A DNA stretch of 32,000 nt from Candidatus Baldrarchaeota archaeon (GTDB lineage Archaea > Asgardarchaeota > Baldrarchaeia > Baldrarchaeales > DXJG01): positions 283,103 to 315,102 of the forward strand of contig DXJG01000002.1 in the NCBI GenBank assembly GCA_019056805.1, read 5' to 3'. A program made the position numbers and the translations under genes. The number at the start of each line of letters is the position of its first letter. The stretch's first letter is position 1. A model generated the notes under the pieces. It ran no database searches. It was not told the origin of the DNA and was given only the letters and a program-made list of their open reading frames with translations. Below are positions 5,106-8,954 of the stretch, piece after piece.

Positions 5106-6394
5106 ATTGACCATGGTCTTATTTTTCCTTCTTCCCTGGTCTCATCACTAATTTTAATACTTCCATACTGAATAATAGCTATTTTGTTTTCATCCACATT
5201 TGTTCTTATTATTAGTTCATTTGATTTGGGATTGTATTCTTTTATAATCCCCACACCAAGAAAATTCATCTTATCATCCATCAAACCAACTAAAATATCC
5301 TTAATCATACTGACCGAAACTATCCTTACATCTCTTACCTGTAAAACACGTTTTACAGCTTCAAGAGAAAGTGAATTAATCATTTCATGATTCTCAGTAA
5401 CTATCAGTAAATAATCTTCGCTCCTTTCACAGTGAACCACCTTTACCCCAAGCATAGCACTTACTCTTTCCACTAACTGTTGATCTGCAATTTTCCCAGA
5501 ACCCAATATACCATACGCCACCCCAACACGGCTTAAAGACACTTTTATTTCTCTTAAATTCTCCAAATACCTCCTAAACATAACTTCTCTCAAAAACTTC
5601 CTTTCTTCCCTATTTCTTTCTCTAATTCTAATCGGAGATTTAACCTTTATAACATTTAACTTCAACTTCCTGAGAGGAACAACTAAATGATCCAATTCTC
5701 CCTCATTTTTCTCCACTAAGATGACATGAGTAGGTTTTATAAGATAAAATAACATAGTTTTAAGCTCTCTTGCCTCCCTACCAAATACCCAGCCACACGT
5801 ATCTATCAGAATAACATCTGACCCAAGGTTAATAGCTTTTTCAACCATAAGCTTCGTACCAGCTATAGATCTTTGAATTAGCCCAGATGGACTGGTAGAA
5901 CCAACAAAAAATCCATCAATAAATTTTAAATCCGACAAAAAAGCTACAGGTTCTGTTAGAATTCCCAAACCAATTGTACATGGAGGTCCTACATCACTTT
6001 GTCCTACGTCCTCGTCCAATACTGCCACTTTAAATCCTTCTCTACATAAAATATTGCCGAGATACGTAACTAAGGTAGTTTTACCAGTATCAACATCACC
6101 AACAATAAAAACTATAGCCGGCTTCTCACTTTTCTTTAAATCCTCGGCAATCTTTACCCATTCTTCAGAAATTAACGAATAATCAACCTCTTCTACTTTA
6201 AAACCAAGCCCACCAGTTATCTCTAAACATAGTTCTGTATCTGCATGTATCCCAATGCTTTTCGCTTTTTTAACGACAATTATATCTCCCGTTCGTATAG
6301 GTTTTCCAAAAAGATCACCGGTCCCAGATTGCACTTCGATCTTTGCTGGACCATCAACAATTAATCCTTTTCCCTTGCTTACTTTCACCTGCAT
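5102..6394 (-). CDS. Clp1/Grc3/Nol9-family polynucleotide 5'-hydroxyl kinase
   Basis: Walker A GDVDTGKTT, DxDVGQSDVGPP, DTCGW, and Arg-rich lid REERKFLRE. Start placed at ATG 6394 (MQVKV) with GAAAGGGGA upstream. Confidence 0.9.
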   Translation of the reverse strand: MQVKVSKGKGLIVDGPAKIEVQSGTGDLFGKPIRTGDIIVVKKAKSIGIHADTELCLEITGGLGFKVEEVDYSLISEEWVKIAEDLKKSEKPAIVFIVGDVDTGKTTLVTYLGNILCREGFKVAVLDEDVGQSDVGPPCTIGLGILTEPVAFLSDLKFIDGFFVGSTSPSGLIQRSIAGTKLMVEKAINLGSDVILIDTCGWVFGREARELKTMLFYLIKPTHVILVEKNEGELDHLVVPLRKLKLNVIKVKSPIRIRERNREERKFLREVMFRRYLENLREIKVSLSRVGVAYGILGSGKIADQQLVERVSAMLGVKVVHCERSEDYLLIVTENHEMINSLSLEAVKRVLQVRDVRIVSVSMIKDILVGLMDDKMNFLGVGIIKEYNPKSNELIIRTNVDENKIAIIQYGSIKISDETREEGKIRPWSI

Positions 6395-6614
6395 CGCAAT
6401 CCCCTTTCTACTTATCAACTTCTGTTTGTATCTACCTTTTAGATAATTACCAACATCATCCTATATTTGTTAGTATTTTAACTTACAAACAAAAAACGTA
6501 TGTTAAAAGTCAAATTTTTAACAAAATGCTTCCAATGTAAATTAAGGACGAAAATGTTATTTACCATAAATAAGAATTACAGAGGCAAAACTGGAGTATT
6601 AAAAGGGGAGAAAA

Positions 6615-7919
6615 TTGCATAAAGATGCACGGAATAACGTAAATTTGACTAAACAACAAAAATCAGTTGAATTTGCAAATAGGATTCTCAAATATCTGAT
6701 CAGTCTTGGTAAAGATTTGGATTTTATTAATCACTTTTATGGATTAAATATTTCACAAAACGACATTAGAAGGTTTAAGGATTTTTTGAAAGTAATAAAA
6801 TTAAAGGCTAAAGGATATAGCCTCACCAAAACTTCCATGCTAGTTGGTGTTCCAAAAGATACGATTGCAAAATGGGTTTTTAACAAGAGTCTGCCATTCC
6901 TAGTTAGAATTTTTCAACATTATATCCAACTAGGAGATTCAAAAGATAAATTATGGTTGTCAGTTAATTCTACTAAAGGTGGATTGTTTACTGGGCCGTG
7001 GATACTGGTACCAGACAAAATTATTCACTATGACGACGTGTTATTTGTTATTAATCAACTTAAACCAATAAATGAATGTAAAATAAAACATCAATTTGAC
7101 TTAAAATCTGACAATCTGAAAAGAATGAAACCTAATTTTTTTGCATATCTACTTGGTATACTAGTTGGAGATGCCAGTAAAGTCGGTATAAAGAGGAAAC
7201 GAAGAACTACTAGAAGAATTTCACTATCTTTAACACGCACATATCCAACAAATGAACGATTGGGAGATTTTGTATCCCTATGTGCTAATTATTTAGGGTT
7301 ACGAATGACCAGAATAAAAGATGGACCAAAAGGTAGTAAAAATAAAAATAGCTTTTTTAGATGGAGTTCACAGTCTTCGCCATTAATTGAATGGATATTT
7401 AATGTCTGCTTAGGGCTTAACGATGATCAACTTACAACTTACGATGCAATTAAAGCCGATTGGATTTTAACTGCGCCTAAAACTTTTAGAATATGGTTTT
7501 TACAAGGACTAGCAGACTCTGACGGTTTCGTAGACTTACAAGCCCAGCAAATAGGAATCATAACGCAACCCAACACAGATTTGATTGAAAGAATTTTTAA
7601 GAGTTTAGGAGTTAATTCCAGAAAAAGAATTTTTAGCGGAAGACTAGAAGGTCTGATGATAAATATAAGAGATGCTTACAAACTTCCTATCTTTAACCCG
7701 TTGGTAAGAAGTTATAGATTTGAGTTACTAGAAAAACTTGTCAAAGCTAAAAGAATACGAGGACGTTGGCCAAAATGGTTAAGTGACAAAGTAGATACTT
7801 ACATAAGAAGCGGTTTGCAAGGAACTCAAATTGTAAAAAGAATCCTTAACGAGTTTAACATAGCTATCAGAACTAAACAAATTTATAAAAGACAAAAAGG
7901 GATAAGTCATGAAAAATAA
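6615..7919 (+). mobile_element. free-standing double-motif LAGLIDADG homing endonuclease gene
   Basis: Motif 1 FAYLLGILVGDAS and motif 2 FLQGLADSDGF, both retaining the acidic residue; N-terminal HTH-like segment (SLTKTSMLVGVPKDTIAKW). No intein C/S start or HN end. Overlaps the true kae1 start by 11 nt. Confidence 0.8.
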
Positions 7920-8954
7920 AAGTTTAATATGCATCGGCATCGAGAGTACCGCACTAGTTTAATCTGCGGAAATACTCTCGGTGTCGGAATCATCACCGAA
8001 GAAGGAAAAATACTAGCTAATGTTAAAGATTCTTATATACCGCCTTACGGGAAGGGGATTCATCCAGCGGAAGCTGCGAGGCATCATGCATTAAAAATGA
8101 GAGAAACTATTTTAAAAGCATTAAAACAAGCTAAAATAAAACTAGAAGATATAAATCTAATTGCTTTTGCTCAAGGACCTGGAATGGGACCATGTTTAAG
8201 AACAGGAGCTGTAGCAGCTAGAACACTAGCCTTAACACTAAATAGGCCTCTGGTAGGAGTTAATCATCTAGTAGCTCACATCGAACTTGGAAAACTAGTC
8301 ACTGGCACCACAGATCCAGTTATCCTAGTCGTAAGTGGCGGAACAACAGCCCTTGTAGCCTTAGCTGAAAACAGATATAGAATTCTAGGGGAAACCCTCG
8401 ATATAGCGATCGGAAACTGCTTTGACAGATTTGCACGAGAAGTAGGGCTACACGACCCAAAACACCCGTGGCCCGGACCCATGTTTGATAAAGTTGCTTC
8501 AAAAGGAACAAAATACATCGAACTACCCTACATAGTTAAGGGAATGGATCTAAGCTTCTCAGGACTACTCACCGCCGCTCTAAAGAAAGTTAAAGAAGGT
8601 TATAGAGTTGAAGACGTTGCATATAGTTTACAAGAAACTGCATTAGCTATGCTCACAGAAGTTACTGAAAGAGCCTTAGCACACACAGGTAAAAAGGAAC
8701 TTCTACTAACTGGTGGTTTTGCAAGGAATATTCGCTTACAAAATATGCTTAAAACAATGGTGGAAGGCAGAGATGCAACGTTCCATGTAACTCCACCCGA
8801 ATATGCCAGTGACAACGGAGCTATGATAGCTTGGCTCGGAATCCTTGCATACAAACATGGTATCACAACTAAAATAGAGGAGAGCTATGTTAGACAAAGA
8901 TGGAGAATAGAAGAGGTCGAAATAAAATGGATAAAAGAAAACCAACTAAAGTAG
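7909..8954 (+). CDS. kae1: Kae1/TsaD t6A threonylcarbamoyltransferase; spliced CDS join(7909..7954,7972..8954), 342 aa
   Basis: Exon 1 reads MKNKSLICIGIESTA in a different frame from the called ORF; splicing gives GIESTAHTLGVGI. The body has HPAEAARHH, GPGMGPCL, HLVAHIE, VSGG, GETLDIAIGNCFD, SFSG and DNGAMIA. Confidence 0.95.
7955..7971 (+). other. 17-nt bulge-helix-bulge pre-mRNA intron in kae1
   Basis: Exon stem 7934-7948/7973-7987; central helix CCGC(7949-52)/GCGG(7966-69); 3-nt bulges ACU(7953-55) and AAA(7970-72); intron stem AG/CU with a 6-nt loop. Canonical cuts restore the frame and the His codon. The intron contains an in-frame TAA. Confidence 0.92.

Follow-up and report, generated by a model that had tools for sequence, protein, structure and literature searches.

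A probable homing cassette of a free-standing LAGLIDADG endonuclease gene and a 17-nt kae1 intron in an Asgard archaeon

The subject of this study was a 32,000-nucleotide (nt) stretch of DNA from Candidatus Baldrarchaeota archaeon (contig DXJG01000002.1, positions 283,103 to 315,102; hereafter the window), in which a free-standing gene for a LAGLIDADG endonuclease adjoins kae1, and kae1 is interrupted by a 17-nt bulge-helix-bulge (BHB) intron. We consider it likely that positions 6523–8009 are a selfish homing cassette that works like collaborative homing: the endonuclease would cut intron-less kae1 at or near the stretch coding for GIESTAHT, and the intron would confer immunity on its carrier. 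The observations that carry this reading are the fold and catalytic residues of the endonuclease, its linkage to the intron, a presence/absence polymorphism with mapped boundaries, a foreign 5' tract in kae1, decay of the endonuclease gene, horizontal spread, and covariation in the intron. We infer a cleavage site in the GIESTAHT-coding stretch and an immunity based on the intron.

The endonuclease had 64 close homologues (31–66% identity), and an exhaustive search returned 358 representatives at E ≤ 1e-3, nearly all of them unannotated. Genomic context was surveyed for every intact homologue of at least 42% identity with DNA available. This gave 22 loci, from Aenigm-, Iain-, Pace-, Woese-, and Nanoarchaeota and unclassified metagenome-assembled genomes, plus the Asgard window. 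In all 22, kae1 lay directly 3' of the intact endonuclease gene (42–67% identity) and contained an insert of 12–28 nt at the identical junction of the Ala and His codons, and the endonuclease open reading frame (ORF) ended between −28 and +44 nt from the GIE motif of kae1. An intact endonuclease beside an intron-less kae1 was found in 0 of the 22 loci examined. The layout that defines collaborative homing, an endonuclease gene adjacent to but outside an ORF-less intron, was present at every one of them. The converse association was looser. A DNA pattern scan for the kae1 intron in 401 Nanoarchaeota-phylum genomes gave 16 hits, two of which were false positives (the intron-less loci L072 and L073); among the 14 true cases the ORF was upstream in five and absent in nine. 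One intron-only allele (L075) retained a 40-residue C-terminal remnant of the ORF directly 5' of kae1 (profile E 1.7e-4). None of the 40 relatives searched in the phylum of the window had kae1 interrupted at the Ala-His site or a related endonuclease beside it.

Within the host genus, where the gene order PHP, PNP, clp1-like (opposite strand), kae1, sua5 is conserved, the locus was found in several allelic states. Empty alleles were present in three congeners (G001–G003, loci L020–L022); their alignment to the window stopped at about 6525 and resumed at about 8004, with approximately 233–248 nt between. A contig from hydrothermal-vent run X7 was approximately 97% identical to 6165–6522 and 8010–8303, with 246 other letters replacing 6523–8009. 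The window itself is the intact cassette allele. Locus L088 had a cassette with an identical intron and an endonuclease gene interrupted by stops and at least three frameshifts; its flanks were 96–97% identical to G002, which is empty, and comparison of L088 with L022 gave the same boundaries as the other pairs. Two further alleles retained only the 3' end of the endonuclease gene, the last 237 nt in L091 and the last 33 nt in L090, whose Kae1 is 95% identical to that of the window; both kept the intron and an open kae1. A 191-nt filler in L090 was considered as a possible 5' remnant and rejected, because it scored 23 against a shuffle mean of 24. The intron was thus retained in every cassette allele of the genus, whether intact, frameshifted, or deleted. 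Because intron and kae1 remained intact where the endonuclease was frameshifted or deleted, we conclude that kae1 function and the intron do not need the endonuclease protein.

Presence/absence polymorphism at one locus, together with horizontal spread and decay, is what characterizes a homing element, and the allelic states resemble successive steps of homing, from invasion through endonuclease decay to an ORF-less intron that survives. At the left end, window positions 6480–6700 had only weak, low-complexity similarity to the congeners, and a 12-nt identity (6626–6637) lay within a stretch that aligned in three cassettes; no stub of the old kae1 start is claimed there. The left flank of L091 (the clp1 side) was 94% identical to G001 and its right flank (kae1-sua5) 85%, a mosaic that suggests a recombination break at the cassette.

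The 5' end of kae1 differed in its affinities from the rest of the gene. After column 96, the spliced kae1 coding sequence was 84% identical to congeners at the nucleotide level (778/930), whereas the first 96 nt were 62–67% identical. Against L021, the counts were 64/96 and 778/930 (Fisher p = 1e-4; congeners p = 1e-4 and 1e-6). The control pair L021–L022 showed no drop (78/93 versus 817/930, p = 0.25). The pattern was inverted in comparison with the foreign cassette L045, which matched the window at 73/96 positions (76%) in the first 96 nt and 504/930 (54%) beyond (p = 3e-5); 39 of the 46 positions of exon 1 were alike, and the body of its Kae1 had 55% amino acid identity to that of the window. 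The first 96 nt of kae1 therefore look foreign. Beyond position 8009, exon 2 is native, with 89% amino acid identity to congeners. For the Ser of GIESTA, the window has AGT where congeners have TCA; most intron-bearing alleles have AGT or AGC at this position, and the remainder GGT or GGC (glycine). The AGT/AGC codon pairs with ACU of exon 2 in the outer helix of the intron structure.

The extent of the moving unit was apparent from L089, which has a different gene neighborhood. Because its DNA similarity to the window covers 6584–8060, we consider the unit to run from the endonuclease gene through exon 1 and the intron to a few dozen nucleotides inside exon 2. The upstream DNA of the cassette was not conserved between hosts. 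The replaced tract extended 38 nt past the 3' end of the intron, a stopping point of the kind expected for co-conversion that starts from a break at the intron site. Protein comparisons pointed to transfer as well: between the window and L002 the endonucleases were 66.9% identical and the Kae1 proteins 50.7%, and for L042 and L046 the values were 60 and 56% versus 52 and 50%. In vertically related hosts, by contrast, the endonuclease diverged faster than Kae1 (e.g., 74.5% versus 89.2% identity). The initial annotation of this DNA had suggested that endonuclease and 17-nt intron spread together, and that co-occurrence, co-conversion tracts, and phylogenies be compared. The suggestion is supported by each of these. 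Every intact endonuclease of the survey was beside an intron-bearing kae1, with the intron alone common and some such alleles holding endonuclease remnants; the kae1 5' tract is foreign; and the nearest cassette relatives were closer in endonuclease (67%) than in Kae1 (51%), the congeners being without the gene.

The RNA around the intron folded into a helix-bulge-helix-bulge-helix (folding z = −6.1). The outer helix, 7942–7948 with 7973–7979, has at least 7 bp and is extendable to approximately 14 bp; the central helix consists of 4 bp, CCGC (7949–7952) with GCGG (7966–7969), and the two 3-nt bulges are at 7953–7955 (AC/U) and 7970–7972 (AA/A). Cuts after the second nucleotide of each bulge restore the frame to read ...ESTAHTLGVGI. 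Two 3-nt bulges separated by a 4-bp helix, flanking helices, and frame-restoring cuts are the archaeal BHB form; at 17 nt and with this structure, the element does not have the form of a self-splicing group I intron. The helices were paired in 98.4% of cells over 29 aligned intron regions, compared with 35–44% when the partner was slid, and one pair of the central helix was compensatory (UA in 16, CG in 8, AU in 4, unpaired in none). L089, whose endonuclease is 66% identical, had a 17-nt loop identical to that of the window and a central helix of CUGC/GCAG instead. Two EndA-family genes and RtcB provide the splicing genes of genome G000, and we infer that the kae1 intron is spliced from the messenger RNA (mRNA). 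The insertion site is the junction between the Ala and His codons in the universally conserved GIESTAHT-coding stretch. Exon 2 resumes with ...HTLGVGI and contains the TsaD/Kae1 domain (E 2e-82); the closest named Kae1, from "Candidatus Baldrarchaeia", was 88% identical, which places the host among the Asgard archaea.

Several further observations concern the intron and the start of kae1. A stop codon in the frame of exon 1 was present in 28 of 30 micro-introns (the window and 29 related loci). Composition-preserving shuffles had a mean of 9.7 such micro-introns and reached 28 in 0 of 2000 trials, and the other two frames had 11 and 4, although this statistic is overstated because the 30 micro-introns are related in sequence. 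With a stop in this frame, an unspliced kae1 mRNA would end after approximately 17–20 codons. In 7 of 20 loci with a full ORF, the endonuclease was in frame with exon 1 and ended at the intron stop, one-third being the chance expectation. A TATA-like TTTATAAAAG at 7881–7890, in the last endonuclease codons (conserved ...IYKR...) and 19 nt 5' of the kae1 ATG, could be an internal promoter yielding a near-leaderless kae1 mRNA; it was absent from the deletion allele L090. Gene callers start intron-bearing kae1 at a wrong-frame ATG inside exon 1 (7929–8954 in the window). The resulting N-terminus, MHRHREY..., belongs to a type (MHRHREY/MHRYREY) also found in database entries P0206, P0207, and P0211. 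With this start the GIESTA phosphate-binding motif is lost, and a universal t6A enzyme looks truncated.

Elsewhere in the phylum of the window, the arch_KAE1 profile was matched in two pieces (1–80 and 80–323) in G005, G010, G020, G026, G030, G036, and G039. The two pieces were on the same strand and mostly 11–29 nt apart, G005 differing. In G016 the match was 21 nt longer with two TAA codons inside. Such split or longer matches probably reflect additional micro-introns in Asgard genomes, at kae1 sites other than the Ala-His junction.

The endonuclease ORF (6615–7919, + strand) has a TTG start, 434 codons for amino acids, and a Shine-Dalgarno-like GGGGAG 4 nt 5' of the TTG; both signals were conserved in two related cassettes (TTG: L088, L089). 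The gene is a single copy in a 1.92-Mb, 91%-complete genome. LAGLIDADG motif 1 is LLGILVGDAS, with D186 at nt 7170–7172, and motif 2 is LQGLADSDG, with D303 at nt 7521–7523, so that each of the two helices ends in a catalytic acidic residue. G181, G185, D186, K189, Q297, G298, S302, D303, and G304 were invariant in an alignment of 34 sequences. The Pfam LAGLIDADG_3 match was below threshold (E 0.006; 17.2 bits with a cut-off of 22.5), which leaves the protein outside the curated profile, but a few of its homologues passed the threshold. We regard it, by sequence, as a divergent LAGLIDADG subfamily.

An AlphaFold2 (AF2) model of the protein was confident (pLDDT 91.6, pTM 0.89). A Foldseek search with it placed I-DmoI at the top (probability 1.00), and superposition of residues 138–378 by VIA-align gave PI-SceI (Z 17.2), PI-PfuI (15.1), I-Tsp061I (15.0), I-SceI (14.5), and I-DmoI (14.1); WhiA (Z 14.6) and the bI3 maturase were also among the structural matches. 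The model has the pseudo-dimeric alpha-beta-beta-alpha-beta-beta-alpha arrangement, and the predicted fold is clearly that of a single-chain, double-motif LAGLIDADG homing endonuclease. Because conserved motifs, a confident model, and superposition agree, the assignment is solid despite the weak Pfam match. Approximately 165 N-terminal and 70 C-terminal residues form extra helical modules, helix-turn-helix-like and conserved in the family according to the alignment and the AF2 model. The N-terminal extension includes a conserved W87 and a WLS(I/L)NSTRGG block in the 34-sequence alignment, some homologues matched Pfam HTH_23/HTH_38, and the extension is presumed to be an extra DNA-binding domain; a feature search with the N-terminal domain gave scores of at most 0.80, a lead at most.

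The kae1 ATG is at 7909, an overlap of 11 nt with the endonuclease ORF, and the endonuclease stop codon (7917–7919) is 35 nt 5' of the intron (7955–7971). An intein-borne endonuclease was ruled out: the ORF begins at a start codon of its own, 5' of kae1, gave no Hint match, and is not embedded in a host protein. The initial annotation had described a 434-residue double-LAGLIDADG ORF with both acidic positions intact that overlaps exon 1, stops short of the intron, and lies outside it without intein ends, and this description stands in full. A different arrangement was seen in the congener locus L091 (5640–7026), where an 862-residue dCMP-deaminase-like ORF 3' of an acetyltransferase had intein-splicing and LAGLIDADG_2/3 matches, and by these matches carries a separate intein-borne endonuclease.

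Among intact homologues, the ratio of nonsynonymous to synonymous substitutions (dN/dS) was approximately 0.09–0.21, with dS near saturation. From these values and the comparison of endonuclease with Kae1 identities, the endonuclease appears to be under selection while intact, to move between lineages, and to decay afterwards. Distant members of the HTH-LAGLIDADG family (L060–L064 and L066; no more than 31% identity, or 26–43% by tblastn) were free-standing and not beside kae1, in Hadesarchaea, Nitrosopumilales, Nitrososphaerales, and Gagatemarchaeum. Their neighbors were unrelated genes (OTCase, EF-1alpha, radical SAM, DpnI), and no shared target was evident. The Hadesarchaea genome with a distant homologue had an uninterrupted kae1, on another contig. 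Proteins such as P0149, which are long and have the homologous region at the C-terminus, showed no informative host domains.

Coordinates of the features are collected in Table 1.

Table 1. Features of the kae1 locus in the window
Feature	Position	Strand	Basis
Putative mobile cassette with co-converted tract, 1,487 nt, in place of ~246 nt (intergenic DNA and native kae1 5' end)	6523–8009	+	Empty-allele alignments
Endonuclease gene, free-standing single-chain LAGLIDADG, 434 amino acids	6615–7919	+	ORF, alignment, model
N-terminal helical extension, ~residues 1–165, helix-turn-helix-like	6615–7109	+	AF2 secondary structure, alignment
Double LAGLIDADG core; motif 1 at 7140–7181, motif 2 at 7497–7526	7110–7700	+	Alignment, Foldseek, VIA-align
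C-terminal three-helix tail, ~residues 363–434; portion left as remnant in L091 and L075	7701–7916	+	Alignment, AF2
kae1 exon 1, MKNKSLICIGIESTA plus first base of the His codon; from the cassette	7909–7954	+	Comparison with L045 and congeners
BHB micro-intron, 17 nt, in-frame TAA at 7960–7962	7955–7971	+	Fold, covariation over 29 loci
kae1 exon 2; first 38 nt (7972–8009) within the replaced tract	7972–8954	+	Congener alignment

The proposed homing cycle would proceed as follows. The cassette would combine three parts: the endonuclease gene, which has a ribosome-binding site and a TTG start of its own; a replacement first exon of kae1; and the BHB intron. The endonuclease would cut an intron-less kae1 at or near the GIESTAHT-coding stretch, and repair of the double-strand break from the donor allele would co-convert the intron, the 46 nt of exon 1, and the endonuclease gene. 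In the carrier, the intron and synonymous changes in the flanking codons would split the recognition site and so give immunity. The host tRNA-splicing endonuclease and RtcB ligase would excise the intron from the mRNA, so that Kae1 would still be made. After fixation the endonuclease gene would decay, first by frameshifts and then by deletion, and a harmless ORF-less micro-intron would stay behind.

Several points weigh against this proposal. The target site in kae1 is deduced solely from the geometry of the locus. The cassette model does not account for the left-hand junction in a newly entered host that lacks upstream homology. The two presence/absence pairs share identical boundaries, which mark the edge of non-homology and not independent recombination end-points, and ordinary homologous recombination of alleles would give the same picture. 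The sequences counted are related and not independent, and the counts therefore overstate the statistics. Finally, no endonuclease remnant was seen in eight of the nine intron-only DPANN alleles, and these remnant-free introns could be older than the endonuclease or have no connection with it.

The best surviving alternative, which we nevertheless consider unlikely, is that the endonuclease has its target elsewhere in the replaced 246 nt, in the start region of kae1 or the upstream intergenic DNA, and that the intron is a passenger in the co-conversion tract. Replacement of the entire kae1 5' end, reaching beyond the intron site, is consistent with this, as are the intron-only alleles without remnants; synonymous differences in exon 1 alone could give immunity. 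A passenger, however, would not be expected in all 22 intact cassettes, in several phyla and at the same junction, despite varying length and sequence, and a shared target upstream is contradicted by upstream DNA that differs between hosts.

Much less probable is that the protein is a domesticated LAGLIDADG factor needed by kae1, either a DNA-binding regulator like WhiA or a splicing helper like a maturase. In favor of this, the gene and kae1 always run in the same direction, overlap, and are probably co-transcribed; purifying selection acts on the gene, and its product has WhiA and the bI3 maturase among its structural matches. But in close relatives the intron persists and kae1 is intact although the gene is frameshifted or deleted, congeners do without the gene, its distribution across phyla is patchy, and both catalytic Asp residues are invariant, unlike those of WhiA. 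The least probable alternative, also raised by the initial annotation and not upheld, is that the micro-intron is the relic of a large BHB intron that once housed the endonuclease ORF in the manner of ribosomal RNA (rRNA) introns: the closest solved structures do include the intron-encoded I-DmoI and I-Tsp061I, and ORF-less introns do remain after endonuclease loss, but the ORF was outside the intron and upstream of exon 1 in every locus, the decay series loses the gene from that upstream position while the 17-nt intron is unchanged, and no intermediate with an intronic ORF was found among the 64 and 358 homologues, whose contexts were only sampled.

We know of no established mechanism for the entry of short ORF-less BHB introns into new sites, especially in protein-coding genes; to our knowledge, homing is documented only for large introns of rRNA genes that carry their own endonuclease. 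The homing cassette proposed here suggests how such tiny introns could spread into archaeal protein genes. It offers a testable mechanism, with a defined enzyme, a defined candidate target, and, within one genus, natural alleles that are empty, occupied, or decayed, and it would bring collaborative homing, described for phage group I introns, to a class of cellular introns spliced by proteins. The window contributes to the family an Asgard host, an intact copy, and the within-genus series of empty, intact, and decayed alleles. More tentatively, and at slightly less than even chances in our estimation, free-standing LAGLIDADG cassettes may quite generally create ORF-less BHB micro-introns in archaeal genes and spread them; the intron would have arisen, and be kept, as an immunity insertion that splits the target of the enzyme in an essential gene and is made harmless by the host tRNA-splicing system. 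The cassette would move between DPANN and Asgard archaea by bringing its own replacement exon, and after decay would leave the orphan mini-introns seen in many genomes. A practical consequence is that kae1 is mis-started in intron-bearing genomes, and the enzyme family may offer new meganuclease specificities.

Searches of the literature accessible to us found nothing on LAGLIDADG together with Kae1, on a BHB intron in kae1, or on the cassette. A search for archaeal protein-gene introns turned up the BHB intron in cbf5 pre-mRNA of Crenarchaeota alone (Yokobori et al. 2009, PMC2738675). The cbf5 intron resembles the one described here in being a short BHB intron in an archaeal gene for an RNA-modification protein, with patchy gain and loss; it differs in that the abstract of that study names no associated endonuclease gene, and the gene here is kae1, in Asgard and DPANN archaea.

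With the enzymes of archaeal rRNA introns (I-DmoI, I-Tsp061I, I-PorI, I-ApeI) the kae1 endonuclease shares the fold (Z 14–15), the intron class, whose removal is the work of the tRNA-splicing endonuclease, and membership among archaeal homing elements. Unlike them, it is encoded outside the intron, upstream of exon 1 in all loci and not within the intron as in I-DmoI, and it is approximately 240 residues longer, with added N- and C-terminal helical domains; its putative target is protein-coding and its intron far too small for any ORF. Similarity to WhiA, the domesticated bacterial transcription factor, is in the LAGLIDADG scaffold fused to helix-turn-helix elements (Z 14.6). WhiA is a vertically inherited core gene product without the catalytic acidic residues, whereas the two Asp residues of the present family never vary in the alignment and its gene occurs sporadically and decays.

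The closest parallel is phage collaborative homing, in which free-standing F-CphI (cyanophage psbA) and MobE (T-even nrdB) lie beside ORF-less group I introns (PMC3984707; PMC2790892), and the intron-insertion site is the enzyme target, so that free-standing endonuclease and ORF-less intron converge on one conserved site (PMC3984707). As in the phages, a free-standing endonuclease gene adjoins a gene whose ORF-less intron interrupts a highly conserved stretch, the enzyme is co-inherited with the intron, and immunity of the intron-bearing allele is presumed. Unlike the self-splicing group I ribozymes of the phages, the intron here is a 12- to 28-nt BHB element with predicted splicing by host proteins, and the enzyme is a LAGLIDADG protein rather than HNH or EndoVII-like. 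The setting also differs: the host is a cellular archaeon, the gene is chromosomal and essential, and the cassette, whose cleavage activity is putative, brings a replacement first exon with it.

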